DNA of 64,000 nucleotides from Candidatus Latescibacterota bacterium. Its GTDB lineage: Bacteria > Latescibacterota > UBA2968 > GCA-2709665. Location: NCBI GenBank assembly GCA_965248435.1, contig OZ252100.1, forward strand, positions 5,248,001 through 5,312,000. Direction: 5' to 3'. A program made the position numbers and the translations under genes. Below are positions 5,114 through 21,429 of this stretch, piece after piece. The notes under the pieces were generated by a model. It was given only the letters and a program-made list of their open reading frames with translations. It searched no databases and was not told where the DNA came from. Within the stretch, counting starts at the first letter, position 1, and each line of letters begins with the position of its first letter.

Positions 5114-5330
5114 TTCAGTCGTCCGACGTTAGGGGGCGTGCGTATCCGAACTTGCGCGGTGCAGTGGGTGTTGAAGACAGGTATTCTTCGAATCTTGCAC
5201 AGATGGGGATTTTCTCCCGGTGTTTCAGACCGTCTCGTGACACATCCGACGACACCAGGAAAGTAACAAAATCCTAGCACCGGCGCCACTACCTCGCATC
5301 ATCCACCACGTTGGCCCGGACCGTCCCGCC

Positions 5331-5416
5331 TTGACAAAAAAAAACCGCAAGTTGCGCCGGTTAAAAAGAAGCCTGCCCGGGCGTCACCGTGCGATTATCG
5401 TAACCTGCTAAAAAAG
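5331..5416 (+). repeat. Degenerate copy of the 3' end of the 17974-18936 gene
   Basis: aaaaaaaaccgcaagttgcgccgg is identical to the 18817-18840 segment. It reads LTKKNRKLRRLK vs VTKKNRKLRRLK, then decays. Confidence 0.85.
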
Positions 5417-5579
5417 TGAACCCCAAGTGACCTTTATCGGTCCTTTGAAGTTTCAGGCCTATTCCACTTTTCCGTTACCTAGATAGAATCCCTTCGTGGG
5501 GATGGAATCTATCTCCCCGGAAAAGCACCTCGAATAGGTTGGGGAAGTCTTAAAGGACCTTAGAACCTCTTGGGGTTCA
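5417..5579 (-). ncRNA. Rod-shaped structured RNA, copy A (6S-like)
   Basis: Terminal 11-bp stem tgaaccccaag/cttggggttca with nested stems ggtccttt/aaaggacc, cctattc/gaatagg, cttttccg/cggaaaag and agataga/tctatct. It has its own promoter and a 3' U-tract, and is a paralog of 18934-19124. Confidence 0.7.
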
Positions 5580-5586
5580 ATAATTC

Positions 5587-5615
5587 AAAGTACCGCAATC
5601 TTCATGGATTGTCAA
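5587..5615 (-). promoter_or_regulatory. Sigma70 promoter of ncRNA copy A
   Basis: TTGACA-17 bp-TACTTT on the minus strand, with -10 ending 7 nt before the RNA stem. Confidence 0.75.
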
Positions 5616-5688
5616 GCATTCTTCATCTAAATTATTACTTCCGGTTATTTTTAATTGAAATAGTTTATATCGTATTGTAAATATTCAA

Positions 5689-5860
5689 CTAAATACCACG
5701 CTCTACCAAAAATAAGCACATGTCCCGTAGTGTCTCCCGAACCTCTGTCTCCGGAAGCTGGTCCAGAGAGGTCTCGGCGACCCGTGTCCACTTCCGGCAC
5801 TCCAAGAGGTGGTCACGGCCGATCAGGGTCTGGAACGCAGCGCTCAGGACATCCTGGTTC
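5689..5860 (-). pseudogene. C-terminal fragment resembling a polyprenyl synthetase
   Basis: Manual translation ...KWTRVAETSLDQLPETEVRETLRDMCLFLVERGI* resembles the IspB/HepT C-terminal helix pair. No start codon; it abuts the AT-rich HTH gene. Confidence 0.4.
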
Positions 5861-6050
5861 AAAAAAGTTGCCTTATGGGAATTCTTAACATATCGCTTAG
5901 TTCAATTAAATGGCGACCTTGTGGGAAATGGATGTCATTCTCCCATTTATAGACAGTGACTATAGTAACCTTAATTTGATTGGCCACATACTCTTGAGTG
6001 TACCCCAATGCCACCCGGCGTCTTTTTATCGTCTCCCCTATTTTCTTCAT
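5859..6050 (-). CDS. Small Cro/XRE-family HTH protein
   Basis: IKRRRVALGYTQEYVANQIKVTIVTVYKWEND, a classic HTH_3 pattern; AT-rich. Confidence 0.8.
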   Translation of the reverse strand: MKKIGETIKRRRVALGYTQEYVANQIKVTIVTVYKWENDIHFPQGRHLIELSDMLRIPIRQLF

Positions 6051-6068
6051 TGCCTTCTGCCCTTCAAT

Positions 6069-6230
6069 TCAAAAGCTTAGTCTTTGAGATCCATTCCAAT
6101 TGGGGGGGACAAATGAAGAAACTTTTATGGCATTCGTAGAGATTATGTTTGCGTTTAACTCTGCATTATCAAAAGCAGCAAGTTTTGTTCTTCCATGGCC
6201 TATTCCAGAAGTGATATAGGCCTTTCCCGA
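6069..6230 (-). pseudogene. N-terminal fragment of a pyruvoyl-dependent arginine decarboxylase-like protein
   Basis: AYITSGIGHGRTKLAAFDNAELNANIISTNAIKVSSFVPP matches the PvlArgDC N-terminus (AFD.AL...N..VSS.PP self-cleavage site); truncated just after it. Confidence 0.6.
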
Positions 6231-6381
6231 TTTTCTATTCCAATCGTGCACAGTGAGTATTAGTACTGATCCATTAAGGTTTGATATTGAAGAATCTGTG
6301 AGGCGGTTCCCCCACAATTGCAGCTAACTTTTGGATATATTGAGTCCATTACCCCTTTATATGAGTCTTTTGAATATCTTT

Positions 6382-6627
6382 TCATCTCCAGCTTCTGACT
6401 TCTCGCATTTCTTTGATATATTCCCTTGGGATGTGGTGTACATTCCGATAAGTATTCCCACGCCTATCCGTCGCAAAACTGACATATTTTCCATCATCTC
6501 TGACCAGAATACCTACCGATTCTAACTCAAATTTTGGGTCAATATCGTCTGCTCCAATCCACCTATCCGGATCCCAGCAGGCGTCCTCCCACCTCACGTA
6601 GATCACTTTCGGCGGCACTTCCATCAC
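6382..6627 (-). CDS. Small phage-like hypothetical protein
   Basis: V.WEDA...SVGIL...IP...I pattern recalled from uncharacterised phage proteins; RBS AGAGGT. Confidence 0.6.
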   Translation of the reverse strand: MMEVPPKVIYVRWEDACWDPDRWIGADDIDPKFELESVGILVRDDGKYVSFATDRRGNTYRNVHHIPREYIKEMREVRSWR

Positions 6628-6654
6628 CTCTCTTTTACCGGGACATAAACAAAT

Positions 6655-6806
6655 AGCCGCACCTCCCGATAATAACCTCTTCTTCGGCGGTGCGGCTTTA
6701 TATACGAACCGACCTTTCGCCCTCAGACTACTGCAAGACCCCTACGATTCGTCAGAGCAGGGCCGGTACGCTCGCGGCCCGACCTTTCGGCAGATTTGCC
6801 TTTTTT
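6655..6806 (-). promoter_or_regulatory. Structured 5' leader: c-di-GMP-I-riboswitch-like element plus hairpin
   Basis: GGCAAA-tctgcc-GAAA-ggtcgg-GCCGC...CCGGCCCT resembles the 5' half of the GEMM-I consensus. Downstream hairpin agccgcacc/ggtgcggct is followed by atttgttt. Confidence 0.35.
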
Positions 6807-6833
6807 GGATGAGCTAAAATAGTACTATGTATA

Positions 6834-6862
6834 AATATACCCGACAATAATGTCGGGTTCAA
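6834..6862 (-). promoter_or_regulatory. Sigma70 promoter with an operator palindrome filling the spacer
   Basis: TTGAAC-17-TATATT; acccgaca-ataa-tgtcgggt perfect inverted repeat at 6839-6858. Confidence 0.65.
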
Positions 6863-7061
6863 GGTGGGGAATGGAAACTGCATCTCAGGAGACACCTCGC
6901 AATTCTAGGGCCGCGTCACAGATGGGAAACTCGCTGGCGTCTGCCGGGGTGGTCGAGCCGCCGCATCAGTCGGATGTCGGCTCAGCCGAAGGAGGCGTTT
7001 TCGCAGGTACCACCGTGATCTTTTGGAGATTGTTCGTCGACACCCATATCAGATCCAGCTT

Positions 7062-9563
7062 TTAGTTGTCCGAAGTGAAATGACGTTCTTCAACGTTTTG
7101 CGGCTTGGCAGGCGTTGAGGAAAAATACTCCTCGACCGTAAAACTATCCACCTGGATCGCATCATTGCGCGCTGCTTCCGCTTCTTCAATCAACCGCGAT
7201 TCTTCGGCGCCGATAATCCCTGACTCGAGAGCGACCGAGACGAGCTCTCGCGGTCTGCCCTTGGGCAATTTTTGAGCCCGAACCGCGTCTCGAATCTTGC
7301 GGTCGACGGCCGCGGCGTCGTAAGAGATCTTGAAGGCACGCTCCAGCCTCCCGAGTGCCTCGTTGGGGTCGTCGGGCACGTAGATTCCCTCAGTCAAACG
7401 ATCGCGCTGGGGACCGGGGGTCTGAATGATACGAGCAACTTGAGCGCCCAGTTCATCAGACGGCATCGTTTCGATGCGATTTATGCGTGACCAGAGGGCG
7501 ATCGGCCCTCGAACGAGCAGACCCAACCCGGGGACTTTGAGGTTCTTCAAAAGTGAGTCGAAACTGTGCTGAAGTTGTGCAAGTATGAACTGCATGGACC
7601 AATGCAGAAGGGGCAGGTCGTCGGTCCGGCGTCCCTCGGCCTCAAACCGACGGAGGGTAGCGGTTCCCAAGTACATACAGGAAAAGAGATCGGCGAAACG
7701 ACCCGTAATTTTTTCTCTCCGCTTCAATTCGCCACCCAACGCAACCATCGTAAGATCGGCTAGGATGGCGAAGGTGGCTGACGCCCACGCCAGTTTTCGG
7801 TAGTAGCGTGCCGCAGGACCGCTCACTGGCGAAATGGCCAGGTGTCCCTGAGATATGCTTAAGAAAATCGAGCGAAAGAGGTTGCGTACGATGTGACGGA
7901 TGTGTCTCCAGAGTGCAAGGTCGAACGCCTCCGTATTGCCAGATTTGAGCGCCTTGATTTCTGCAGCCGCGTACGGGTGACAACGAATTGCACCTTGCCC
8001 GAAGATCATGAGGGTACGCGTCAGGATGTTGGCCCCTTCCACGGCAATCGTGATAGGCGTCCAGCTGTAGATGTGGGCCAGGAGGTTCCGGGGACCTCGA
8101 GCAATCGCGTTCCCGGCGAAAATGTCCATGCCGTCGTTAATGGCCTTGCGGTGAAGTTCTGTAAGGTTGTATTTGACGATGGCCGTCGCGACGGCAGGCC
8201 TTGCGCCCTGATCCAGTGCGCCACAGGTGTAGCGACGGGTCGCTTCCATCAGGTAGGCGAATGCGCCGATGCGGGCCAACGGTTCCTCGATTCCTTCGAA
8301 CTGGCCGATGGATAGGCCGAACTGTCTTCGGACGGTCGCATAGGCACCGGCAGCCCGTGCCACGAACTTGGTCCCTGCAAGGGCCATTGCCGGGAGTGAG
8401 ATGCCGCGTCCTGCTGCCAGAGACTCCATCAACATCCGCCAACCCTGTCCCACTCCCTCGACACCTCCGATGATAGAATCGATAGGCACAATCACGTCGT
8501 GCCCCTCGACGGGACTATTGTAAAATGGGACACCCATCTGGTCGTGCCGCCTGTTGATCACGACACCCGGTGTCCTGGTTGGGATCAAGGCACACGTAAT
8601 CCCTGGATTCTCAGATTTGCCGAGCAGATTGTCCGGATCCTTGAGCTTGAACGCCAGACCCACGACGGTCGAAACCATCGCCAGGGTGATATACCGTTTT
8701 TCCCAGTTCAGTTTCAGATATAGCTGGCCGTCCTCTCCCTTGAAGACGAGACCGTTTGCCTGAATGCTGCCTGCGTCTGAGCCCGCCGTAGGCTCGGTAA
8801 GGGCAAAGCAGGGCACTTCCTCCCCACAAGCCAGGCGCGGCAAATAATATTTCTTCTGCTCCTCCGTTCCGTAATGAATCAACAGTTCGGCAGGCCCCAG
8901 GGAGTTCGGTACCATCACTGTGAGCCCCAAGGTCAAGGACCTTGAAATCAACTTTCCAACGACCGCACTGTTGGCTGAGGCGGAGAACTCAAGGCCACCG
9001 TAGGCCTTCGGGATGATCATACCGAAGAATCGGTTTTCTTTGATGTAGTTCCAGGCCTCTTCGGGGATATCCTTATTTACGTGTACTTCCCAGTCGTTGG
9101 CCATGCGGCAGACTTCGTTAACAGGCCCGTCCAGAAATGCCCGTTCCTCCTCGGTCAGGTCGGGATAGGGTTGTGCATTCAGACGCTTGAAATCAGGTTT
9201 TCCTGAAAACAGCTCGCCTTCTATCCATACATCGCCCGCATCCAGTACGGCTTGCTCGGTTTCTGAAATGACGGGCAGGATATTCACCCTTTGCAGGACG
9301 GACATGATCGGCGCTGACAGCAACACTCGGCGAAGCGGACGAAGGTTAAGAACCAGCGCCAGCACGACATAGACGAGTCCAAGCCAGGGGGGTGCTCCAA
9401 GAACCCACAAAGCTGCGCCCCAAGAAACCGTCCACAGCCAGAGAGGCGCACCTGCGAAACCCAGGATACAGACCACGACGAAGATTCCGACAACGCCGCC
9501 TGGAAGGAGGGACGCGTCAAGCAGCGCGCCGTATGTAGATTCTAGTAAATTCATAGCGAACAC
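7062..9563 (-). CDS. fadE: Acyl-CoA dehydrogenase (FadE type)
   Basis: N-terminal TM segment, VMVPNSLGPAELL, CFALTEPTAGSDAG, VRRQFG, EGANILTR and a FadE C-terminal domain. Confidence 0.93.
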   Translation of the reverse strand: MFAMNLLESTYGALLDASLLPGGVVGIFVVVCILGFAGAPLWLWTVSWGAALWVLGAPPWLGLVYVVLALVLNLRPLRRVLLSAPIMSVLQRVNILPVISETEQAVLDAGDVWIEGELFSGKPDFKRLNAQPYPDLTEEERAFLDGPVNEVCRMANDWEVHVNKDIPEEAWNYIKENRFFGMIIPKAYGGLEFSASANSAVVGKLISRSLTLGLTVMVPNSLGPAELLIHYGTEEQKKYYLPRLACGEEVPCFALTEPTAGSDAGSIQANGLVFKGEDGQLYLKLNWEKRYITLAMVSTVVGLAFKLKDPDNLLGKSENPGITCALIPTRTPGVVINRRHDQMGVPFYNSPVEGHDVIVPIDSIIGGVEGVGQGWRMLMESLAAGRGISLPAMALAGTKFVARAAGAYATVRRQFGLSIGQFEGIEEPLARIGAFAYLMEATRRYTCGALDQGARPAVATAIVKYNLTELHRKAINDGMDIFAGNAIARGPRNLLAHIYSWTPITIAVEGANILTRTLMIFGQGAIRCHPYAAAEIKALKSGNTEAFDLALWRHIRHIVRNLFRSIFLSISQGHLAISPVSGPAARYYRKLAWASATFAILADLTMVALGGELKRREKITGRFADLFSCMYLGTATLRRFEAEGRRTDDLPLLHWSMQFILAQLQHSFDSLLKNLKVPGLGLLVRGPIALWSRINRIETMPSDELGAQVARIIQTPGPQRDRLTEGIYVPDDPNEALGRLERAFKISYDAAAVDRKIRDAVRAQKLPKGRPRELVSVALESGIIGAEESRLIEEAEAARNDAIQVDSFTVEEYFSSTPAKPQNVEERHFTSDN

Positions 9564-9564
9564 C

Positions 9565-10755
9565 TTACGAGGACGGTCGTTCCACGATGAGCGCGCAGGC
9601 TTCTCCTCCTCCGATACAGATCGAGGCCAGTCCTCTCCTCTTGCCGTAACGCGCTAAGGCGTGTAGCAATGTAACTAAGATCCGAGCCCCGCTCGCACCA
9701 ATGGGATGCCCGAGCGCCACGGCGCCGCCGTGAACGTTAACCTTGTCCATGTCTATGTGTAACTCCTGGCCGACCGCCAGGTTCACGACCGCAAAGGCTT
9801 CGTTGATCTCGAAGAGGTCGATATCCTCAAGGGACAGCGAGGCCCTCCTGAGGATGCGGGGGATCACTTTGGCGGGCGCCATGGTGAACCATTCCGGCTC
9901 CCTGGCCGCAGAGGCCTGAGCTGCGATCCGCGCAAGCGGTTCGATGCCGAGTTCGTGAGCGCGCTGGACGGACATAACCACACACGCGGCCGCCCCGTCG
10001 CTGATGGGGGATGCACTCGCAACCGTCACGGTGCCCTGTTCCTGAAATACCGGTTTCAGACGCGGGATTTTGTCAAAGTCGGCGCGCCCGGGTTCTTCAT
10101 CGCCTGAAACCGCTTGCTCACCACGTCTCTCTTTGACCACAACAGAGACGATTTCATCGTCGAAGAAGCCCCTCTCCTGTGCGGCCTGTGCTTTTTTGTA
10201 GGACTGGATCGTGAACTCATCCTGGGCCTTCCGCGAGACACGACATTCCCTGGCGCAGAGTTCCGCGGCCTCTCCCATGTGGAAATCGTTATAGGGGTCC
10301 CACAAACCATCTTTGAGAAGGCTGTCTATCATCGAACCGTGGCCAAGTCGATAACCTAACCGTGCGTTATCGAGCAAGTAGGGGGCATTCGACATGCTTT
10401 CCATGCCCCCAGCGACGACAACATTTGCGTCACCCAGCTGGATGGCCTGTGCGGCCTGCATTACCGCTTTCATGCCGGATCCACAGACCTTGTTGATCGT
10501 CGTACAGGGAACGGAGTCTGGAATGCCCGCGGAAAGGGCGGCCTGGCGGGCGGGAGCCTGCCCTGCACCTGCGGTCACAACCTGGCCCATAATCACTTCG
10601 CTTACATCATTTCCCTTTAGTCCAGCGCGAGAAAGCGCTTCACGAATCGCGACGGCCCCCAGTTCGGGTCCGCTCAAACTGGAGAGGGACCCGTTGAAGG
10701 ACCCGATGGGGGTACGACAGGCGCTCGCGATGATCACTCCAACTTCAGTCACCAT
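9565..10755 (-). CDS. atoB: Acetyl-CoA C-acetyltransferase (canonical thiolase)
   Basis: NKVCGSG, EINEAFA, GHPIGASG and CIGGG motifs. Confidence 0.93.
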   Translation of the reverse strand: MVTEVGVIIASACRTPIGSFNGSLSSLSGPELGAVAIREALSRAGLKGNDVSEVIMGQVVTAGAGQAPARQAALSAGIPDSVPCTTINKVCGSGMKAVMQAAQAIQLGDANVVVAGGMESMSNAPYLLDNARLGYRLGHGSMIDSLLKDGLWDPYNDFHMGEAAELCARECRVSRKAQDEFTIQSYKKAQAAQERGFFDDEIVSVVVKERRGEQAVSGDEEPGRADFDKIPRLKPVFQEQGTVTVASASPISDGAAACVVMSVQRAHELGIEPLARIAAQASAAREPEWFTMAPAKVIPRILRRASLSLEDIDLFEINEAFAVVNLAVGQELHIDMDKVNVHGGAVALGHPIGASGARILVTLLHALARYGKRRGLASICIGGGEACALIVERPSS

Positions 10756-10809
10756 ACAAGACTACTCCGGAGACTCGGTTGATCTAGAATGTTGACTTCG
10801 TGCTACAGG

Positions 10810-10826
10810 AGCCAAAACCGTGCCGA
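10810..10826 (-). promoter_or_regulatory. Putative sigma54 -24/-12 promoter for thiolase-fadE
   Basis: cGGCACGgtttTGGCt (GG-N10-GC), ~55 bp upstream of the ATG. Confidence 0.5.
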
Positions 10827-11025
10827 ATGCCAAGCTTGTTCCATATCATCTAAAATTACAAGAAGATATGGCCGAAAGGCGCCATCCCGATCGGGGCTAT
10901 TCAGCAGGGAACTGTCAAGATATCGTTACCTGTCCGCAGGAGGCTGCTAAAAAAATGAACAGGCTCAGTTCGCAACCCGGCGCCTTTTGATTCATCGAAC
11001 CTCCACGAGGGCAGCACGCGAAGGC

Positions 11026-11652
11026 TCAATGCGCCCGCTGCATTGGACTTTCACCCTTCGCGGGTCGATGGACATTGACCAAACACGCGAGCATACGTGC
11101 CGGTTGAAAGCCCAAGGCCCTCACAGTATGAGGGAGACGGGAATCGAAGTAAATGGAATCCCCGCTGGCGAGGCGATACGTATCCTGATCGATGGTCATC
11201 TCCACTTCCCCCGAGAGGATAAAGTGGAATTCCTCTCCTTCGTGAGACAGTGGTTTAACGTCCTTTTGCTCACTTGGAGGGATTTCAACGTGGAAGGGGG
11301 ACATCACCTTGTCAGTCAGCCGGTAAGCAAGCGCCTCATAGCTGTAGTTCAACGCTGCGGCGGTGTCGGTCTGCGGGTCAACCTTCCACCGTTCCGTGGA
11401 CCGCACGATCTCCACCCTGGCGGTCGGCGGCCCAGACATGAAGAAGTGATTCAAACTCACGCCGAAGAGCTGTCCGAGGTTCATCAACTCTCCAACGGCC
11501 GGCAGCGCATTGCCCGCTTCATATTCTTGGAGCTGATCCTCGGAAAGGCCGCTGGACTCTGCCGCTTCTTCGAGCGTAAGCCCGCTATGATTTCGGAGAT
11601 CGACAAGCTTTTCACTGAGCTGCTGTTTGAACGTTGCCTCGTCCATGTTCAA
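11026..11652 (-). CDS. XRE HTH + cupin transcriptional regulator
   Basis: N-terminal HTH, HEGEEFHFILSG and GDSIYFDSRLPH cupin motifs. Confidence 0.9.
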   Translation of the reverse strand: MNMDEATFKQQLSEKLVDLRNHSGLTLEEAAESSGLSEDQLQEYEAGNALPAVGELMNLGQLFGVSLNHFFMSGPPTARVEIVRSTERWKVDPQTDTAAALNYSYEALAYRLTDKVMSPFHVEIPPSEQKDVKPLSHEGEEFHFILSGEVEMTIDQDTYRLASGDSIYFDSRLPHTVRALGFQPARMLACLVNVHRPAKGESPMQRAH

Positions 11653-12968
11653 TCACCTTTTTGGAATTCTTCGAAATCAGCTCGCTGCAAGATTTCTCTC
11701 ACGTCCTGAATAAACTGTGCCCCCTCGAAGCCGTCCACGATGCGATGATCCAAACTCAACGATAAGTTCATGATTTCCCTGGGCTGGACAGATCCGTCCA
11801 CATATCGTGGAAGTGTACGAATAGCGTGTACTCCCATAATCGCAGATGCAGGGTAGTTGATAATGGGCGTTGCCATCACGCCACCCAGCTTACCCAGAGA
11901 CGTTATCGTGAATGTGCTCCCCCTCAATTCAGATAGATTGAGCTTCTTTTTCCGAGCTTTCTCGGAAAGTTCGCGGACTTTTATTGCGAGGTTTGCAACA
12001 TCCAACTTGCCGGCATTACGGATGACGGGGACCATCAGACCTTCCTCCGTCGCCACAGCGATTCCGAGATGAATCGCGGCTTTGAAGATGATTTCTCCTG
12101 TCTGTTCATCTACACAGGCGTTCAACTGAGGATAGTCAGGCAGGACGGTGAGTGCTGCACGGGCAATAAAGGCCAGTGGAGATGGGGCCGAGTCTGTTGG
12201 CAAGTTCCTGCGAACGGATTCAAGAGATGTTACGTCGACTTCCTCAACATACGTATAGTGTGGAATTAGCGTTTTGGATCGCATCACACGATCGGCGATC
12301 GAACGTCGAACGCCACGAAGCAGCTGCCGCTCCCAGTCAGGCTCGTCTTCTTGCGCCAACTCTGATACGGGCGGATGCGTTGGTGGAGCAACGCTCCGCT
12401 CTGCGGCCTTCTGAAATGCCTCCACATCTCGACGCATCACCCTTCCATCCGGGCCTGTTCCAGGTACCTGCTCGATGTCGATGTTCAACTGTTTAGCCAA
12501 TTCTCTGACTGCGGGCACTGCGTCGGCCCGCTTCTCGCGGCCCCTGCTCGGTATCGGGAGATGGGCCTGGGGACGTGGGGGCATGTGCGGAGGATGATTG
12601 GTGGTGCCCCTGCTTCCCGTCGGAGGAGGATTCTCAGCCTCTGGTTTGGGCGGTGCCTCCTTTGCTTTAACGGCCTCTTGGAGCGGCCCTTTGACGTCAG
12701 CATCCCGGGTTCCACCGGGTGCGACATCAGCGTCGGCATCGTCTATCTCTATCAGCACCGCTCCGACGGATGCGATGGCCCCCTCATCCACCACGAGTCG
12801 GTGAACCCGCCCAGTCCTGGGTGACGGGATCTCGACCAGGGCCTTGTCCGTCATCACTTTTGCGATGATCTGATCTTCCTGGACGGACTTCCCCTCTTCC
12901 ACCAGCCATTCGACCAGTTCTGCCTCTGCTATCCCCTCACCCAGGTCCGGCAGTACAAACCGGTACAT
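11649..12968 (-). CDS. 2-oxo-acid dehydrogenase E2 (dihydrolipoamide acyltransferase)
   Basis: PDLGEG, lipoyl TDKA, E3-binding GTGPDGRV and DHRIVDG; likely start is ATG 12968. Confidence 0.93.
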   Translation of the reverse strand: MYRFVLPDLGEGIAEAELVEWLVEEGKSVQEDQIIAKVMTDKALVEIPSPRTGRVHRLVVDEGAIASVGAVLIEIDDADADVAPGGTRDADVKGPLQEAVKAKEAPPKPEAENPPPTGSRGTTNHPPHMPPRPQAHLPIPSRGREKRADAVPAVRELAKQLNIDIEQVPGTGPDGRVMRRDVEAFQKAAERSVAPPTHPPVSELAQEDEPDWERQLLRGVRRSIADRVMRSKTLIPHYTYVEEVDVTSLESVRRNLPTDSAPSPLAFIARAALTVLPDYPQLNACVDEQTGEIIFKAAIHLGIAVATEEGLMVPVIRNAGKLDVANLAIKVRELSEKARKKKLNLSELRGSTFTITSLGKLGGVMATPIINYPASAIMGVHAIRTLPRYVDGSVQPREIMNLSLSLDHRIVDGFEGAQFIQDVREILQRADFEEFQKGD

Positions 12969-12985
12969 CAGCGTTCCCTCCACAT

Positions 12986-13969
12986 TCAGAACTCTATCGT
13001 CTTCCTCAAGATTTCCAGAACACGCTCCTTATTCGGGAGGTAGTGGTCCTCCAGAGCATAGGGAAACGGCGTATCGAAGCCTGTGACCCGTTGCAGTGGC
13101 GATTGCAGCTTGGAAAAGGCCTTTTGCTGCACCTCGGCAAGGAGTTCGGCGGCAAAGCCGCACGTGCGCGGTGCCTCCTGAATCACAACCAACCTTCCGG
13201 TCTTTTCCACGGAAGTCAATACGGTTTTGAGATCGTAGGGCAAGATGCTGAGCAGATCGATCACTTCGATATCATAGCCCTCGCCCTCGGCCAACAGAAC
13301 AGCATCACGGGCCACATCCATCATGGCTCCATACGCCAACAGCGTAAGGTCACGCCCCTCTCGAACAACTGTGGCCTTTTCCATAGGGATCGTATAATAC
13401 TCCATCGGGACCTGGGCCTTTACGGAGCGGTATATCCTCTTGGGCTCCAGAAAGACGACCGGATCGGGGCACTCGAGTGCGCCCAACAACAGGCCTTTGG
13501 CCTCGTACGGGCCCGAGGGGATGACGACCCGCAACCCGGGCGTGTGCGCAAAATAGGCTTCCGGGCTCTGTGAATGGTAATGGCCGCCTCGAATGCCACC
13601 GCCGTAGGGCATCCGGATGAGCATCTTGATTCCATACTGTCCCCCAGAGCGATAACGATACTTGGCAGCTTCGCTGACAATTTGATCAAAGGCCGGGAAA
13701 ACAAAATCTGCAAACTGAATCTCTACGATCGGCTGGAGACCGCCCAACGCCATGCCGATCGCAGCACCCACGATTCCGGCTTCCGCCAAAGGGGTATCGA
13801 AAACCCTCTCTGCGCCGAATTTTTGTTGCAATCCCTCAGTCACGCGAAACACGCCGCCAAACCCCCCAACGTCCTCTCCCAGAATCACCGCGTTTTCCTC
13901 GCGCTGCATGTGCAGCTCCAGTGCGTCGTTAAGCGCCTGGATCATGTTCATTTCAACCAGCTCTGGCAA
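12986..13969 (-). CDS. 2-oxo-acid (branched-chain) dehydrogenase E1 beta
   Basis: GEDVGGFGGVFRVT, DTPLAE, EIQFADF and HSQSPE motifs. Confidence 0.93.
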   Translation of the reverse strand: MPELVEMNMIQALNDALELHMQREENAVILGEDVGGFGGVFRVTEGLQQKFGAERVFDTPLAEAGIVGAAIGMALGGLQPIVEIQFADFVFPAFDQIVSEAAKYRYRSGGQYGIKMLIRMPYGGGIRGGHYHSQSPEAYFAHTPGLRVVIPSGPYEAKGLLLGALECPDPVVFLEPKRIYRSVKAQVPMEYYTIPMEKATVVREGRDLTLLAYGAMMDVARDAVLLAEGEGYDIEVIDLLSILPYDLKTVLTSVEKTGRLVVIQEAPRTCGFAAELLAEVQQKAFSKLQSPLQRVTGFDTPFPYALEDHYLPNKERVLEILRKTIEF

Positions 13970-13978
13970 GGGTGGATC

Positions 13979-15067
13979 CTATTGTGTTTTGCGACCGAGG
14001 AATTCTAAATATTCTTCTTTCTGACTGCGCAACGCCTCTGGCATCCGATCGTAGACATCATCGAAGAGGGATTCTATCTGAGGGGGTGGCAGGCGTTCAC
14101 AGTCCTCTATCGCGTTCGAAACGGCTTTTTCTGCGTCTGCCCATACCTCCTTTTCCATCTTATCCTCCCATATCCCCCGCCACGTTGCGTGAATCCGCAG
14201 GCGGGCCAAGGCGTCGACTTTCTCCCACTCCTGCGTCTCCTCTTCTGAACGGTATCGGGTCGGATCATCCGAAGATGAGTGTGCGCCCATACGGTAGGTG
14301 AGGGCCTCGATCAGCGTTGGCCCTCGCCCGTTTCGGGCACGTTCTGCAGCCTCCTTCACAGCCTGAACGACCGCGATCAGGTCGTTCCCGTCTACCTGTA
14401 AGCCGAAGATTCCGTAGCCCTCCGCCCGGACTGCCAGGCTGCTGGCCCTGGTCTGGAGTGATTCGGGAGTTGAGATCGCGTAGCCGTTGTTTCTGATCAC
14501 AAAGATTGTTTGGGCGTTCAGTACGCCGCTGAAATTCAGCGCCGTGTGGAAATCTCCCTGGGAGGCCGTGCCTTCTCCCAGAAAAGCCAACGCCACATTC
14601 TCCGTCTGGCGGAATCTGGCCGCGTAACCAAAACCGCAAGCGTGTGGCAGCTGTGTGCCCACGGGACTGCTCACGGAAGGGATATGGTAGTCGCGAAAGC
14701 AATAATGGACGGGCATCTGCCGACCTTTGTTGACATCTTCTGCATTGCCTATCATCTGATTCATAATCGCATCAAGGGGCACTTTCCTCCACAGCAGTGA
14801 GCCGAGTTCCCGATATGTCATGAAAATCGGGTCGTCTTCCCGCAAGGCGTAGGCAGATCCCACAGTAACTGCCTCCTCGCCCGAACTCGTCATGTAGAAG
14901 CCCAAACGCCCTTGGCGCTGAAGAATCATCAAACGACGATCCATCACTCGGTTGAGCAGGACGATCCGAAGAATGGCCAGCAGGTCGTCGTCCGGAATCA
15001 GGCCGAGATATTCCTCTGGACAACTCCCATCCTCGTTGAGTATCGAGCGCCTGCTTTCAGTCATCAT
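13979..15067 (-). CDS. 2-oxo-acid (branched-chain) dehydrogenase E1 alpha
   Basis: QRQGRLGFY, KGRQMPVHY, GEGTASQGDFH, NNGYAIS and HSSSDDP motifs. Confidence 0.93.
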   Translation of the reverse strand: MMTESRRSILNEDGSCPEEYLGLIPDDDLLAILRIVLLNRVMDRRLMILQRQGRLGFYMTSSGEEAVTVGSAYALREDDPIFMTYRELGSLLWRKVPLDAIMNQMIGNAEDVNKGRQMPVHYCFRDYHIPSVSSPVGTQLPHACGFGYAARFRQTENVALAFLGEGTASQGDFHTALNFSGVLNAQTIFVIRNNGYAISTPESLQTRASSLAVRAEGYGIFGLQVDGNDLIAVVQAVKEAAERARNGRGPTLIEALTYRMGAHSSSDDPTRYRSEEETQEWEKVDALARLRIHATWRGIWEDKMEKEVWADAEKAVSNAIEDCERLPPPQIESLFDDVYDRMPEALRSQKEEYLEFLGRKTQ

Positions 15068-15338
15068 GGCTTCTCAGAGGAAATTCCTTCTTTGTTGACT
15101 GGCCGGAAGTGGGCTGCTGAGCTATATTTAAAGATAATACATTTGGGTCCACTCCTCAATCGATCAACTCGATTCCATCCATTCTGGATTCTTGTCAAAA
15201 GCGACTCCAGATGGATGGATTCAGCTCCGTGAGTTTAAGGGGCCGGGTGATTTGACTCTTGGCGACCCAAATCTCTATCTTCATCGAAATTGGATGAAGG
15301 TTGACCCGGGCCGTATTCACGAAATGCGGATCTTGAAA

Positions 15339-17330
15339 ATGGACGAGATGGATGCAAAACTGAATTCCTGGTTTCTGGGCCCGAAGGCCGAGAACGCCGA
15401 CATCCTTGAGCGTCTTGTCCTTGAGGCACTCAGGGACTGCGTATTTTGGAGACGGAACTTCCATCCGGAGGATGAATTTCTCGTCCCCGAAAGCGTAAAG
15501 AGAGAAAAAGCGTTCCAGGATTCAGTTGGCCAGATGACGCAGCATTTTCAGAACCTTCTCGCCGACCTGAAGAGGGGGATTCCTTTTTATAGTCCAAGGT
15601 ATATCGGCCATATGTTGGGAGACCAACTACTTCCCGCGGTCCTTGGCTATTTTGCGGCGATGCTTCACAATCCGAACAACGTGAGCCATGAAGGATCGCC
15701 AATGACGTCCAGGTATGAGATAGAGGTCGGGCGACAACTGGCAAGGCTGATGGGCTACGGTGGTGACGCCTGGGGTCACATCACTTCTGGCGGAACGATC
15801 GCAAACTTCGAGGCCCTTTGGGTCGCCAGGAACCTGAAGTACTTACCTTTGGCGGCAAATAAGGTTGCTGAGGACCTTAGACTTGACATAGAAATAAGGA
15901 CCCCAGGTGGAGATACTGGAGATCTCGCTTCTGTGAAAGATGCGTGGGTGCTTTTGAACCTTGATCCTGATGAGGTTCTGGAGATTCTTCCGAGACTGCG
16001 TTCGGCCTATGCGAACAAAAGTCAGGGTTTGACTGAAAGTCAAACAAATAAAGAGATCGAAGTGCGGATGGCCAGGCATTCTATATCCGGCTTGGGGATA
16101 CATCGGTTTTTTTCTGAATCAGGATTCAAGCCTTTGAACCCTGGATTGATACTCATGCCTGCGACGGCGCATTACTCACTGAAAAAGGTTGTTGAGGCAC
16201 TTGGCATGGGCCGGGGACAAATCGAACTCATCCCGATCGACAGTCACTTCAGGATGGACATTGGCTCTTTAAGGGAAAGATTGCGGGATTGCCTGGATTT
16301 GAAGAGACCTGTCATTGCACTGACGTCGGTTGTAGGATCTACAGAGGAAGGGGCAGTAGACCAGATTCATGAAGTTTCTGAAATTCAGGAGGAGTTCAGG
16401 CGCGAAGGACTCAGTTTCTATCACCACTGCGACGCAGCGTGGGGGGGCTATGCAAGAACACTTTTCTGCGAAGAGGATGGAACTCCAGTGAGGCTTGCCG
16501 GAGACATCATGAAATTTATTCGGATCTGGCCCTCTGACGAAATCTTCAAGAGTTTTAGCGCCATTCACACTTCAGACTCTGTAACCATAGACCCCCATAA
16601 ACTTGGATACATACCGTATCCCTGCGGCACCATCGTGTTTCGGAACGATAAAGTAAAAGACCTGATTTCCTTCGACGCTCCCTATATCTTCTCGGACAGC
16701 GGGAACGAAGAGAGCTCGTTTATCGGGCGACATATCTTGGAAGGTTCAAAGCCAGGGGCTGCCGCGGCTGCGTGCTGGCTGGCTCATAAAGTTGTGCCTC
16801 TGGATCAGAGCGGATACGGACAGCTTATCGGAAAGAGCATACAGGGCGCACAGGAGCTGTATTTAAAGTGCGAGAAAGACCTGTCTCTGGAGTTGGCAAG
16901 CTCTGGAATTAAGCTGAGGGTGCTCACCGATCCTCCCGACATTAACCTGATCTGTTTCATCGTAAACACAGACGGGAACTCGTCATTGTCGAGAATGAAT
17001 GAGCTGAATAAAGCCATTTGCGACGAGCTGAAGTTCGATCCAGCTGAAATCACAAAACGGCCCGAATTCATGATTTCGAGTACCGAGTTCATCTACGATC
17101 AATACGGTCTGGAGGGTTTCGACGGAAAGAATAGTATGGACGAACATTTGCAGGTACTCGGAATCTCCTCTAGAGAGTTTGGATCCGTTGGGAGGGTCAG
17201 CGTATTGCGATGCACTATCATAAATCCATGGTTCGCCCTGTCTCGAGGAGGGAAACCCGATTATATAGAAGCGTTTGCAACTACGCTGAAGGCGACGATA
17301 GATCGGGTGGTTTCAAACCTCTCCCCCTAA
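15339..17330 (+). CDS. Group II PLP-dependent amino-acid decarboxylase (tyrosine decarboxylase-like)
   Basis: FLGPKAEN, SPRYIGHM, GHITSGGTIAN, HCDAAWGGY, SVTIDPHKLGYIPY (PLP Lys) and LEGSKPGA; start uncertain (15324-15348). Confidence 0.85.
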   Translation: MDEMDAKLNSWFLGPKAENADILERLVLEALRDCVFWRRNFHPEDEFLVPESVKREKAFQDSVGQMTQHFQNLLADLKRGIPFYSPRYIGHMLGDQLLPAVLGYFAAMLHNPNNVSHEGSPMTSRYEIEVGRQLARLMGYGGDAWGHITSGGTIANFEALWVARNLKYLPLAANKVAEDLRLDIEIRTPGGDTGDLASVKDAWVLLNLDPDEVLEILPRLRSAYANKSQGLTESQTNKEIEVRMARHSISGLGIHRFFSESGFKPLNPGLILMPATAHYSLKKVVEALGMGRGQIELIPIDSHFRMDIGSLRERLRDCLDLKRPVIALTSVVGSTEEGAVDQIHEVSEIQEEFRREGLSFYHHCDAAWGGYARTLFCEEDGTPVRLAGDIMKFIRIWPSDEIFKSFSAIHTSDSVTIDPHKLGYIPYPCGTIVFRNDKVKDLISFDAPYIFSDSGNEESSFIGRHILEGSKPGAAAAACWLAHKVVPLDQSGYGQLIGKSIQGAQELYLKCEKDLSLELASSGIKLRVLTDPPDINLICFIVNTDGNSSLSRMNELNKAICDELKFDPAEITKRPEFMISSTEFIYDQYGLEGFDGKNSMDEHLQVLGISSREFGSVGRVSVLRCTIINPWFALSRGGKPDYIEAFATTLKATIDRVVSNLSP

Positions 17331-17348
17331 TTCAGAATCTCGATTCTC

Positions 17349-17437
17349 TTGACAACGGCAGCCCCAACGTGCATATTTGATTCAGGGTCGTACTGGCGGA
17401 GATAAGATCTTCGACCGTACGGCTTTTTGTTTTTTTG
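17349..17437 (+). promoter_or_regulatory. Sigma70 promoter immediately followed by a terminator-like hairpin
   Basis: TTGACA-17-CATATT, then a gtcgtac...gtacggc hairpin and a long U-tract. Confidence 0.5.
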
Positions 17438-17486
17438 TGAACGCCAGGTTTCCAATTTCTGCAAGAAGAAACTTTAGGATTGGATC

Positions 17487-17930
17487 ATGAATTTGAATAA
17501 GTTGCTTCGGCCGGATCGAATTCTGCCGGACATCACGAGCGACAAGAAGGTCGGGGCCATAAGGGAATTGGCAGGTCTGCTCGAGGGGAGTGAAGATGTG
17601 CGAGATTTTCGCTCCTTCCTCTCTTTCTTGATCCAGGAGGAAGCGCGTTCAGGAAGTGTTGTCGAGAATGAAGTGGCAATCGTGCACTGCCGTCACGAAG
17701 GGGTGATAGAACCTGCCATATGCATCGGCATGTCAAGCCACGGCATAGCTTTTGCGGCCGAGGAGGCAGTACGGATCCTCGTCTTGATTGCCTGGCCGAG
17801 CAAGCACGAAGATGTCTACCTCAAGGTATTGGGAGAACTGGCCAGACTGCTCCAACAGGAATCTGTGAGGACGCGTCTCCTGACCGGATCGACGGCCGAG
17901 GAGGCCCTCGATTCTCTAACAACTAACTGA
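17487..17930 (+). CDS. PTS EIIA (PtsN/Fru-like) domain protein
   Basis: KVGAIRELA, E...S..ENEVAIVH (phospho-His retained), HEDVYLKVLGELARLL. Confidence 0.82.
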   Translation: MNLNKLLRPDRILPDITSDKKVGAIRELAGLLEGSEDVRDFRSFLSFLIQEEARSGSVVENEVAIVHCRHEGVIEPAICIGMSSHGIAFAAEEAVRILVLIAWPSKHEDVYLKVLGELARLLQQESVRTRLLTGSTAEEALDSLTTN

Positions 17931-17973
17931 TTTATATTAGGATAGAACCCCTTCCATTCATCCCCTGCATTTC

Positions 17974-18936
17974 ATGGCAGTCATTACGATTTCCAGACAA
18001 ATCGGAAGCAGCGGTGAAGCAATCGCCCGGGGTGTGGCCGAGCACCTGGGGTTTGTCTTTATTGATCGGGCCGGGCTCGAGGACCTCGTGCTCACCTACG
18101 GCCTCGATGAGGTAGACCTTCCCCGGATCCAGGAGCGACCTCCCAACTTCTTGGAGCGTTTATACTCAGACCGGAAGTTGTATCTGCAACTTGTCGAATC
18201 CTTCATTCGAGATACGGCGGAATATGAGAATTTCGTCCTCATCGGGCGGGGAGGTCAGTGCGTCTTCAAGGATTCTGAAAATGCGTTCCACGTTCGGGTT
18301 GTTGCCTCTGAGCGAAACCGAATAGAAAACCTGGTGGAAGCTGAATCACTCGAGAGAGAAAAGGCGCGGAGCAGACTGATTGAAGCAGAGCGAACCCAGC
18401 AACGCTTTGTTGAAACCCTTTACGGAAGAAGCATAGATGACCCGTACCTCTACGATCTTGTGCTACGAACAGATCAACTCGATGTTCGGGCGTGCGTCCA
18501 CCTGATCATCCATGCCGTAGGACAACGATCTCTGACAGTACATCTCCAATCGAAAGATGTGCCCGAGAAAACTTCTGAGGCGGAAGGCGTTGCAGGTTCG
18601 CGGGTAGAAAAAACACACACTTTTGCGAACACGAGCGAAGAAGCGTTCGCAAAGATTCTGGATTTTTATCGGATCCGATGGGAGTATGAGCCAAGAACGT
18701 TTCAGTTGGAATGGGATGAGGAGGGTTTGGTCAAGGAGGCCTTCTCGCCAGACTTCTATCTGGTCGATTCGGATACGTATATCGAACTGACGACGCTGAG
18801 ACAAAGCCTTGTGACCAAAAAAAACCGCAAGTTGCGCCGGCTAAAGGAACTCTATCCGGAGGTCAACGTGCGGATCTTTTACAAGAGGGATTATCAGAAC
18901 CTTCTGATCAAATATGGACTCGTAAAAACAAAATGA
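17974..18936 (+). CDS. Cytidylate-kinase-like protein fused to a PD-(D/E)XK-like domain
   Basis: VITISRQIGSSG, VLIGRGG and YDLVL; C-terminal domain FANTSE...WEYEP...FSPDFYL...YIELTT. Confidence 0.8.
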   Translation: MAVITISRQIGSSGEAIARGVAEHLGFVFIDRAGLEDLVLTYGLDEVDLPRIQERPPNFLERLYSDRKLYLQLVESFIRDTAEYENFVLIGRGGQCVFKDSENAFHVRVVASERNRIENLVEAESLEREKARSRLIEAERTQQRFVETLYGRSIDDPYLYDLVLRTDQLDVRACVHLIIHAVGQRSLTVHLQSKDVPEKTSEAEGVAGSRVEKTHTFANTSEEAFAKILDFYRIRWEYEPRTFQLEWDEEGLVKEAFSPDFYLVDSDTYIELTTLRQSLVTKKNRKLRRLKELYPEVNVRIFYKRDYQNLLIKYGLVKTK

Positions 18937-19124
18937 ACCCCAAGTGACCTTCATCAGTCCTTTGAGATTTCTGCCCTGTTCGACTTCCCCGGTTCTCAGA
19001 AAGAATCCATCCGGATTTCAGTGTTTCCGTCCTGCAACTCCTGCCAACGGATTCTTTCTCCCCGGAAAAGCTCCTCGAACGGGTTTTCGAAGGTTCAAAG
19101 GACTTTAGGACCTCTTGGGGTTCA
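18934..19124 (-). ncRNA. Rod-shaped structured RNA, copy B (6S-like, 191 nt)
   Basis: Stems tgaaccccaag/cttggggttca and agtcctttga/tcaaaggact, an internal bubble, then cccgttcga/tcgaacaggg, cttttccgg/ccggggaag and agaaagaatcc/ggattctttct; 3' U-tract. Confidence 0.75.
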
Positions 19125-19130
19125 AGGGTC

Positions 19131-19159
19131 AATCTATACCAACCCCTGGCGTTTGTCAA
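19131..19159 (-). promoter_or_regulatory. Sigma70 promoter of ncRNA copy B
   Basis: TTGACA-17-TAGATT, with -10 ending 6 nt before the stem. Confidence 0.78.
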
Positions 19160-19261
19160 GGTTTTTTTATCGCAACTATAACCTTTGTTTCTACACGTTT
19201 ATATGACATTGTAAATATGTGATTTAAATAAATTGAAAACTGCCTAAGAGACGGGAAAACC

Positions 19262-19810
19262 ATGGAAAATGGGGAAAGTCGCGTCCAAAGGATCCTTATC
19301 GAAGCGGAGGCCATCCAACAAAAGGTTTCCGAGCTCGGCCGGCAAATCTCCGAAGACGAGACGGATGCGGCCGATCCACTCGTCCTCATCGGGATTCTAA
19401 AGGGGTCCCTCATATTTCTGGCCGACCTTTCCCGAGCGATCTCCAACCCGATCCAGATCGAGTTTATGTCGATTTCGAGTTATGATGCCAGCCAGAGCTC
19501 GGGTGTCGTCCGAATTCTGAAGGACCTGGATGTTAACATCACAAACCGCCGCGTTCTGATCGTGGAGGGCATCATCGACACTGGACTTACCCTCAACTAC
19601 GTCCTTCGAAGCCTCCAGGCAAGAAGACCTGAAAGTCTGAAAGTTTGCACGCTCCTCGACAAACCCGCACGCCGCTCGGTTGACATCCCGATCGACTATC
19701 TGGGTTTCACGATTCCAGATGAATTCGTTGTCGGCTACGGTCTCGATTTTAACCAGGAGTTTCGAAATCTGCCCTTTATCGGGGTCCTGGACTCGGGCGG
19801 CCACGCTTAG
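19262..19810 (+). CDS. hpt: Hypoxanthine phosphoribosyltransferase
   Basis: GILKGSLIFLADL, SSY, VLIVEGIIDTGLTL, LLDKP and FVVGYGLD motifs. Confidence 0.93.
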   Translation: MENGESRVQRILIEAEAIQQKVSELGRQISEDETDAADPLVLIGILKGSLIFLADLSRAISNPIQIEFMSISSYDASQSSGVVRILKDLDVNITNRRVLIVEGIIDTGLTLNYVLRSLQARRPESLKVCTLLDKPARRSVDIPIDYLGFTIPDEFVVGYGLDFNQEFRNLPFIGVLDSGGHA

Positions 19811-19947
19811 CAGGTTGTCGCTCGCCAGCGGATCGAATCGTGGGTGGGTATGCAAAGATCGTCTCGCCATTCGTTGATTGAGGATAAGACCGAGGGAGAG
19901 TTCACGAATCACTATATTAGAAATGGTAATATAGTCTATAAAAATAC

Positions 19948-20565: not shown

Positions 20566-21429
20566 ATGGCAGATGGTAAACGTGCAGCTGGGGCGAACGC
20601 AGAAGATTCCTTACTCAACTATATGGAGAGCATATCCACATCTCGTCCGCTCTCTCCACGGGAAGAAGCGGCCCTGGCCCGGCGAATCCGAAAGGGCGAT
20701 CTTAGTGCTCGAGACAGGCTGGTCGAAGCCAATCTGAGATTTGTCGTTCGGGTTGCTCGCGAATACCGGAATTTGGGCGCACCCCTTAACGACTTGATCA
20801 GTGCTGGTAACGTTGGATTAATACAAGCAGCAGAACGGTTCGATGAGACCAAGGGATTCAAGTTTATTACTTATGCGGTCTGGTGGATCCGGCAGCAGAT
20901 CATGGAGTCGCTTTCCGATTATCCACGACTGGTGAGACTACCGTCCAACCGGCTTGAGTTACTTCATAAAATAGGCCGTTGTATTAAATCCTCGCAATCT
21001 AAAAGTAACTCTTTGCCATCTAACGAGGAGATCGCTAGAGAGCTGGGAATTACTGTAGGCAAACTTGTGGATACTGTTCTAAAGGGCCGGGACGTGCTCT
21101 CTTTAGATGCTGTATTCGATGGTGCAAACTTCCAAAGTTTGATGGACGTGACGCCTGATCAAACCCAGGAATCGCCGGAGGAACAACTGGCCCGCACCAC
21201 TCGGGACAGCGAGATCCAATCTGCGTTGGGCACATTGGAAGAACGTGAACGAGACGTCCTCTTAATGTACTTCGGCTTGGATGGCAAAGGCAGTAGGACC
21301 CTGAATGACATAGGGTGCGATTTGGGGGTGAGTCGCGAACGTGTGCGCCAGATTAAGGAGAAGGCGCTCATTAAGCTGCGGCATCCAATGCGAGGTCAGA
21401 AGCTCCTGAAATACGCGCTGGAGATGTGA
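20566..21429 (+). CDS. Short RpoD/SigA-family sigma70 factor (no region 1.1)
   Basis: LVEANLRFVV, DLISAGNVGL, GFKFITYAVWWIRQ and GVSRERVRQIKEKAL motifs. Confidence 0.93.
   Translation: MADGKRAAGANAEDSLLNYMESISTSRPLSPREEAALARRIRKGDLSARDRLVEANLRFVVRVAREYRNLGAPLNDLISAGNVGLIQAAERFDETKGFKFITYAVWWIRQQIMESLSDYPRLVRLPSNRLELLHKIGRCIKSSQSKSNSLPSNEEIARELGITVGKLVDTVLKGRDVLSLDAVFDGANFQSLMDVTPDQTQESPEEQLARTTRDSEIQSALGTLEERERDVLLMYFGLDGKGSRTLNDIGCDLGVSRERVRQIKEKALIKLRHPMRGQKLLKYALEM

Follow-up and report, generated by a model that had tools for sequence, protein, structure and literature searches.

Two structured RNAs of an hpt-linked family

The 64,000-nucleotide (nt) stretch of DNA considered here, referred to throughout as the window, belongs to contig OZ252100.1 (positions 5,248,001 to 5,312,000 of the forward strand) of a Candidatus Latescibacterota bacterium with a 5.67 Mb genome (G000). 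Comparison of two loci within it shows them to be paralogous genes of a predicted structured small RNA of ~165-190 nt encoded on the minus strand. They lie 13.5 kb apart and are the only two copies of the element in the genome. One of them, copy B, sits between the gene of a two-domain protein, termed the partner gene below, and hpt:

18934..19124, minus strand: RNA copy B, 191 nt, a rod-shaped structured RNA whose apical stem carries a 28-nt extra segment
5417..5579, minus strand: RNA copy A, 163 nt, a paralogue of copy B with a shorter apical stem
17974..18936, plus strand: partner gene, 320 amino acids (aa), with a cytidylate-kinase-like N-terminus (PF13189; Pfam 7.7e-37) and a putative resolvase-like C-terminus (~residues 215-315)
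19262..19810, plus strand: hpt, hypoxanthine phosphoribosyltransferase (TIGR01203, 212 bits against a cut-off of 150), third member of the conserved cassette

The partner gene and copy B share 3 nt, the stop codon of the former reaching into the 3' end of the latter. A sequence-only reading of the window had proposed two paralogous rod-shaped noncoding RNA genes at 5417-5579 and 18934-19124, and two diverged copies are indeed what lies there.

Copy B is predicted to form a rod composed of a basal helix, an A.A mismatch, tandem G.U pairs and central internal loops of 13 and 11 nt, with a minimum free energy (MFE) of -85.5 kcal/mol and a z-score of -5.71 relative to shuffled sequences; the corresponding values for copy A are -64.1 kcal/mol and -3.97, both on the minus strand. 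The plus strands fold about equally well (z of -5.21 for copy A and -6.56 for copy B), which means that it is the promoter, U-tract and G-U pairs that assign the strand, and not the folding energy.

Aligned over 171 columns, the two copies differ by 38 substitutions and by one 28-nt apical insertion in B, so that A has the shorter apical region (163 versus 191 nt), as the sequence-only reading had described. Their terminal stem, TGAACCCCAAG/CTTGGGGTTCA, is identical, and the RNAalifold consensus of both comprises 51 pairs, none of which is broken in either copy. The compensatory changes that had been claimed for the stems are present as well: three pairs differ on both sides (G-C/A-U, A-U/G-C and U-A/A-U), and three further pairs differ on one side, via G-U. 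Substitutions are rare in paired columns (9 in 102, the pair always being retained) relative to unpaired ones (29 in 69; Fisher p 4.6e-7), and when nine stem substitutions were randomised, all pairs were retained in none of 20,000 trials. This test is partly circular, as the structure was derived from the same two sequences, and independent support comes from the wider family described below. In a related strain (run X6, ~98% identical, covering 7097-19900), all six differences in copy B fall at unpaired positions of the predicted fold, in a comparison that was made at a depth of 4.2 on a single contig in which single errors are possible, and that has no cover over 5200-7096, the region of copy A. 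Together with the family-wide covariation, the retention of pairing supports the proposal that both copies are under structural selection.

A family absent from Rfam

Rfam 15 yields no match in the window at gathering score, none beyond noise at E<=10 on stretches of 600-650 nt around each copy, and none at E<=1 in five homologous loci. Homologues were collected with a pattern made from both arms of the terminal stem and run over public collections. This search returned five loci in species-representative genomes, labelled Syntrophobacteraceae or as metagenome-assembled genomes (MAGs) of Deltaproteobacteria, and five metagenome loci, two of which are true members. The other three metagenome loci (L048, L049 and L050) were rejected as unrelated long near-perfect palindromes sharing only an 11-mer with the family. 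They are ~165 nt long, have unrelated interiors and carry the 11-mer TGAACCCCAAG at matching positions, L049 and L050 being one element in opposite orientations; the shared 11-mer probably reflects chance among many long palindromes.

Two covariance models were used, R1 being built from the two copies of the window and R2 from seven new sequences with the window copies excluded. Among 41 relatives of genome G061, R2 detects 66 matches in 20 genomes, each of which holds 1-7 copies, at scores between 201 and 27 bits. The same model recovers both window copies (B at 38.6 bits, E 2.5e-7; A at 35.2 bits, E 1.6e-6). In all, 41 family copies were collected, and an alignment of 38 sequences has 92.9% of its cells paired and changes on both sides at 28 of its 45 pairs; the alignment was fitted to the structure of the model, which favours that structure. 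None of 500 shuffles reaches any of five measures, and slid partners pair at 53.2% at most.

The most conserved part of the RNA is the base of the rod, with CCCC/GGGG in 38/38 sequences, the A.A mismatch and GGUC opposite GGUC. The resulting tandem G.U and U.G wobbles are retained in 37 of the 38 sequences and would be A.C mismatches on the other strand, which fixes the sense strand; all seven first-found members also fold better on this strand. Over the distal two thirds of the RNA, sequence varies and pairing stays. The basal core (CCCC/GGGG, A.A mismatch, tandem G.U) at the closed end of a paired rod of 150-190 nt is present in both window copies. Within a single carrier genome the copies have diverged, scoring from 57 to 201 bits.

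Searches of viral contigs, plasmids and phages gave no match to the RNA. A run of R1 over 151 genomes of the window's phylum detected the RNA in G000 only, which is a weak negative, given that a strict filter was applied, 16 candidates were scored per genome and the known copy in G111 was missed. Literature listings and the openings of abstracts, subscription journals not among them, contain neither a description of the RNA nor a function for the partner protein. The RNA thus very probably belongs to a family that is absent from Rfam 15, its status as undescribed following from the missing Rfam 15 match combined with strong covariation over 38 homologues. An undescribed family was one of two identities that the sequence-only reading had offered, and the covariation it had anticipated among homologues is borne out by the 38 aligned sequences.

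Copies may also occur in close pairs. Locus L095 has two RNA copies on one strand with 660 nt between them (1501-1668 and 2328-2476), the second lacking part of the apical region (149 nt, 96.7 bits). Paired copies are likewise seen in G068 (contig 100) and G086 (contig 81), at distances of 6.5 and 11 kb, compared with 13.5 kb in the window.

Linkage to the hpt cassette

A survey of the RNA's neighbours, in which 128 flanking open reading frames (ORFs) from 35 RNA loci were annotated by Pfam, found a PF13189 gene and a Pribosyltran gene directly upstream on the same strand at 13 of the loci. Among the 41 relatives of G061, the full-length partner protein occurs in 18 genomes, every one of which also holds the RNA, with one copy in each located 0.6-2.1 kb downstream of the protein gene on the same strand; of the 21 RNA-negative relatives, none has the full-length protein. 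Within the window's own phylum, the protein is found in 3/168 genomes (G000, G058 and G111), which belong to three different families, and in all three the protein gene and hpt flank the RNA, which converges on the 3' end of the protein gene. Of 401 evenly sampled genomes of the other phylum, four have the protein, including G594, where an RNA copy adjoins the protein gene. Taken over all clades, an RNA copy adjoins the cassette in 22 of 23 protein-positive genomes, and the trio of RNA, protein gene and hpt is present in 19 genomes of the other phylum; genomes within each clade are not independent in these counts. Patchy distribution, together with a linkage that is kept in two gene orders, argues for functional coupling rather than chance synteny.

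The hpt of the window is 48-53% identical to the cassette hpt of the other clade and is the only hpt match in G000, while G073 and G084 have a second hpt elsewhere. In the genomes compared, adjacency to hpt is the defining context of the family, which replaces the 'non-canonical synteny' that the sequence-only reading had seen in this neighbourhood.

Other genes were noted near family members. In G058, the one genome of the same class with the cassette, an IS1595-family transposase gene (L105, 359-1201) has been inserted, separating the RNA from hpt. Two loci have a nucleoside 2-deoxyribosyltransferase gene immediately upstream of an RNA copy, and in two loci the cassette-linked copy is followed directly by an adenosine-specific kinase gene (salvage-gene neighbours at L080 992-1405, L089 1127-1390, L088 1732-2343 and L097 826-1443).

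The partner protein

The partner protein is 39-44% identical over its full length to RNA-adjacent orthologues in other genomes. Its N-terminal domain matches the structural-genomics entries 3fdi and 3hdt of the PDB, both named 'putative kinase', by sequence (E 3.4e-23) and by fold (Z 22.9, root-mean-square deviation (rmsd) 1.6, 164 aligned residues). For the C-terminal domain of ~100 residues, several searches suggest a resolvase-like fold. Profile comparison aligns it with T7 endonuclease I (3cae_A) at E 3.7e-4 when 12 sequences are used and at 0.015 with 63. A tblastn search leads to Gordonia phage genes (E 6e-3), four of ten records being annotated as Holliday junction resolvase. An AlphaFold model with a predicted local distance difference test (pLDDT) score of 80.5 has, as its best BFVD match in Foldseek, a 315-aa phage 'Endonuclease I' (E 1.2e-6), followed by DUF559, endonuclease and resolvase entries; a first model, from 12 sequences, was too poor (pLDDT 51.5) and was left unused. 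For the better model, Foldseek ('pdb') and VIA ('pdb_via_wide') listed matches to the kinase domain only. Residues E222, D260 and E271 are invariant, and the position of the ExK lysine, which is catalytic in T7 endonuclease I, is taken by an invariant threonine (E271-L-T273). Three points count against the resolvase-like assignment: the profile scores are weak (E 3.7e-4 to 0.015), the BFVD alignment has an rmsd of 26.8 over both domains, and AlphaFold modelled the whole protein, i.e. both domains together.

Homologues of the protein are numerous (2,562 at E<=1e-5), are annotated only as 'cytidylate kinase-like' and come from sources whose names include NC10, Firmicutes, Dethiobacter and Desulfoferrobacter. 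Several phage proteins of ~310 aa align over both domains, among them a Siphoviridae 'Endonuclease I', the 'Holliday junction resolvase' of Bacillus phage SP-15 and gp28 of Bacillus phage G; the kinase-plus-resolvase architecture may thus also exist in phages. A RapZ-like operon logic was considered for the locus and rejected: the PtsN-like enzyme IIA (EIIA) gene upstream (17487-17930) is not conserved, G058 having a YtxH-like gene and G111 a major facilitator superfamily (MFS) gene at this place.

Expression signals

Each RNA copy is flanked by a candidate promoter and a U-tract:

19131..19159, minus strand: promoter of copy B, TTGACA, 17-nt spacer and TAGATT, a 10/12 match in the promoter scanner, ending 6 nt before the first base of the basal helix
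5587..5615, minus strand: promoter of copy A, TTGACA (5610-5615), 17-nt spacer and TACTTT (5587-5592), read by eye
18924..18933, minus strand: 3' U-tract of copy B, UUUUGUUUUU, within the final codons of the convergent gene
5410..5415, minus strand: 3' U-tract of copy A, UUUUUU

The TTGACA-17-TAnnnT promoters named in the sequence-only reading are thus recovered by scanner for copy B and by inspection for copy A, and the 3' U-tracts it had named follow both copies; the scanner called no canonical terminator hairpin at either. The layout is general to the family. In each of the 40 members inspected, (C)TTGAC(A/T) is followed by a spacer of ~17 nt and by a -10 element of TAnnnT type ~7 nt before the helix, and a T-run lies 3-5 nt past the basal helix. 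Spacer sequences drift among members, and the distances of promoter and U-tract stay fixed. These signals support the view that copies A and B are independent transcription units.

Duplication and surroundings of copy A

The similarity between the two loci extends beyond the RNA. On one side, 5332-5393 resembles 18812-18872 (82% over 62 nt, blastn), and beyond the promoter a further ~20 nt match between 5663-5684 and 19197-19218. The former includes a degraded piece of the partner gene's 3' end:

5331..5393, plus strand: what remains, in decayed form, of the last partner-gene codons, duplicated with copy A (75% over 16 residues at 5331-5378 by tblastn; 82% over 62 nt by blastn)

The alignment of this remnant shows deletions, and no hpt remnant is present beside copy A. 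Copy A would stem from the duplication of ~0.4 kb comprising the 3' end of the gene, the RNA and the promoter region, of which only the RNA part would have been kept intact.

The ~1.3 kb adjoining copy A (5720-7062) contain short ORFs only. The 82-aa product of one of these (6069-6317) aligns to no more than positions 4-46 of the 161-position profile of pyruvoyl-dependent arginine decarboxylase, which makes the stretch look like one of decayed genes. Farther out, at 685-1869, the window encodes a full-length homologue of indoleamine 2,3-dioxygenase (E 6e-111), beside thiolase and acyl-CoA genes. For an acyl-CoA dehydrogenase, a protein atlas gave Pseudomonadota as the commonest group, and an origin in a sporulating Firmicute was rejected after a search for Spo0A gave no match.

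What might the RNA do?

The explanation that best accounts for these data overall, and towards which we lean, is a family of trans-acting RNAs whose basal helix is bound or processed by the cassette protein. The RNA would be abundant, would be made from its own promoter and would act in trans. How the protein would take part is a more tentative matter, and the mechanism sketched here is one we would sooner doubt than assert: the RNA would form a complex with, or be cut by, the kinase/resolvase-like protein, whose structure-specific nucleic-acid-binding domain would recognise the invariant basal helix or the central junction. Extra copies, i.e. copy A in the window and up to seven copies elsewhere, would serve as further doses, variants or decoys, the last idea being modelled on GlmY and GlmZ acting for RapZ. 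In Enterobacteria, RapZ recognises both of these RNAs, and one can act as a decoy for the other. A bolder reading, possible and on present data doubtful, joins RNA, kinase/resolvase-like protein and Hpt into an unrecognised three-part ribonucleoprotein module, in which a Holliday-junction-resolvase fold would have been turned to the recognition or cutting of structured RNA and which would have spread patchily between phyla, the protein occurring in 3/168 and 4/401 genomes and its homologues bearing names from NC10 and Firmicutes. Such a module may tie purine salvage to the turnover of RNA or to a signal carried by RNA.

Several observations speak against a trans-acting RNA served by the cassette protein. 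In the neighbour survey, 22 of the 35 RNA loci lie away from the cassette. The RNA-positive genomes G065 and G081 have no detected full-length protein, and G388, a fragmented 8.0 Mb assembly, has the gene pair without detectable RNA. Co-occurrence within the clade of G061 may reflect common descent, and contact between RNA and protein is something that we infer. On the expression side, the scanner does not list the promoter of copy A, because its poor -10 element matches at 3/6 positions only, and the contigs of one metatranscriptome run (X1) include none over either RNA copy, the nearest being 19170-19548, a result that is uninformative either way.

Alternative explanations

Tight association with the cassette is also what one would see if the RNA were a cis-acting or antisense element without a trans partner, be it a convergent terminator, an insulator or an antisense RNA directed at the 3' end of the partner mRNA or at hpt. 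The adjacency in 22/23 protein-positive genomes fits this idea, as do the overlap with the stop codon from the opposite strand in the window's phylum and the position just downstream of hpt in the other clade. We nevertheless regard it as unlikely, since the two clades place and orient the RNA differently with respect to the genes, with its core invariant throughout, all copies have a consensus promoter of their own, the gene overlap amounts to only 3-19 nt, and 22 of the 35 loci lie away from the cassette; copy A, too, has kept all of its pairs beside a dead gene remnant only. An element acting at the level of DNA, without any RNA function, is a still weaker candidate. It would be an imperfect palindrome that extrudes as a cruciform and is targeted by the resolvase-like nuclease, serving as a site of recombination, homing or mobility, or a repeat resembling a miniature inverted-repeat transposable element (MITE), and the resemblance of the partner domain to junction-resolving enzymes, the long inverted repeat with several copies per genome, its duplication with flanks in the window and the IS1595 transposase beside the RNA in G058 would all suit it. 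Invariant G.U pairs and ~35% unpaired positions, however, are strand-specific features of an RNA and make poor cruciforms, promoter and U-tract stay at constant distances despite drift in the spacer sequence, the copies of one genome have diverged (57 to 201 bits) rather than being near-identical, and plasmids, phages and viral contigs gave no match. The sequence-only reading had itself named many dispersed copies with target-site duplications as the mark of a MITE; the 5.67 Mb of G000 hold two copies, and no target-site duplication was seen, which leaves the DNA-level element highly improbable.

The RNA is like 6S RNA in its length, its rod shape and the internal loops in its middle (13/11 nt in the window, where a 3-bp helix is predicted within them, and 9/21 nt in the other clade), the promoter is strong, and the sequence-only reading had put forward a 6S pair. 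One or both copies would then be divergent 6S-type RNAs that mimic an open promoter, sequester the RNA polymerase holoenzyme and are released by the synthesis of product RNAs (pRNAs). It is in favour of this possibility that the lineage's own 6S is unaccounted for: RF00013 has no match in the whole genome of G000 at E<=1 and none at E<=0.1 in the 61 genomes formed by G000 and 60 relatives, with a cut-off of 46.4 bits for the model and 4-5 of 14 control genomes positive. The 6S of this lineage would thus be either missing or too divergent for Rfam. The copies themselves, however, lack an RF00013 match even at E<=10 on 600-nt stretches, and the RNA was found in none of 60 close relatives by BLAST and in none of 40 by R1 with all candidates scored. 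A housekeeping 6S is expected to be conserved, which makes it very improbable that the RNA is that of the lineage. Canonical 6S RNA, at 110-115 bits, is moreover encoded elsewhere in four of five other carrier genomes, up to seven copies of the family occur per genome, and the invariant part is the basal helix rather than the bubble. All told, we give the 6S proposal very little chance. Even less can be said for a sponge of the CsrB/RsmZ type titrating CsrA via GGA motifs in loops. Such motifs occur in the majority of internal loops, with a high density in the additional apical segment of copy B, and paralogues are common among Csr-type RNAs; yet CsrA (PF02599) was not found at E<=1e-5 in the carriers G000 (97.5% complete) and G058, as opposed to G073 and G084, where it is present, and a single rod without an Rfam match is unlike the multi-hairpin Csr/Rsm RNAs. 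For G000 the idea is contradicted by the missing CsrA, and in general it is scarcely credible.

The neighbours that the sequence-only reading had named are both in place, hpt being confirmed by TIGR01203 and a sigma-70-family gene lying at 20566-21429, 1.4 kb from copy B. This sigma factor gene plays no visible part. A 287-aa RpoS/RpoD-like group, with 5 to 14 matches per relative genome, has 13 in G000, this gene among them, and the gene product is only ~57% identical to its nearest relatives.

Implications and comparison with known systems

A structured RNA family with a strong promoter, several copies and clear covariation represents a gap in Rfam, and a candidate partner from a large uncharacterised family would provide an experimental handle on an orphan RNA and an orphan protein family at once. 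Should the resolvase-like domain indeed act on RNA, the known range of this nuclease fold would widen. The case further illustrates that a rod shape, a length of ~180 nt and two copies do not suffice to identify an RNA as 6S.

6S RNA (RF00013, ssrS) shares with the present family a rod of ~160-200 nt, internal loops in the middle, a strong promoter of its own and, in some bacteria, the existence of two paralogues. It differs in that the family described here does not match its covariance model, is not conserved among close relatives, reaches seven copies, conserves the basal helix and is linked to a specific protein-coding cassette. On the protein side, the E...PDF...E motif pattern aligns with that of T7 endonuclease I and the phage Holliday-junction resolvases, and Foldseek finds endonuclease I, DUF559 and resolvase models. 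The window protein departs from these enzymes in having the invariant threonine in place of the ExK lysine and in joining the resolvase-like domain to a kinase-like one whose P-loop is non-canonical; its gene is located on the chromosome, in company with hpt and an RNA gene.

Two systems combine RNA and protein in ways akin to the one proposed. GlmY and GlmZ of the Enterobacteria are paralogous structured small RNAs of similar size, one of which can serve as a decoy for the other, and RapZ unites a P-loop-kinase-like N-terminus with a separate nucleic-acid-binding C-terminus. The present RNAs have no sequence or Rfam relation to GlmY and GlmZ, the C-terminus of the partner protein appears to be resolvase-like rather than RapZ-like, and contact between the two is, here, our inference. 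Bacterial Y RNAs, which associate with Ro/Rsr, likewise differ, as the family has no Rfam Y-RNA match, its neighbour is not rsr and no tRNA-like module was seen. What they have in common with it is a design in which the paired 5' and 3' ends form the conserved protein-binding helix and the distal part is variable, and a gene that adjoins that of the partner protein, sometimes in several copies.

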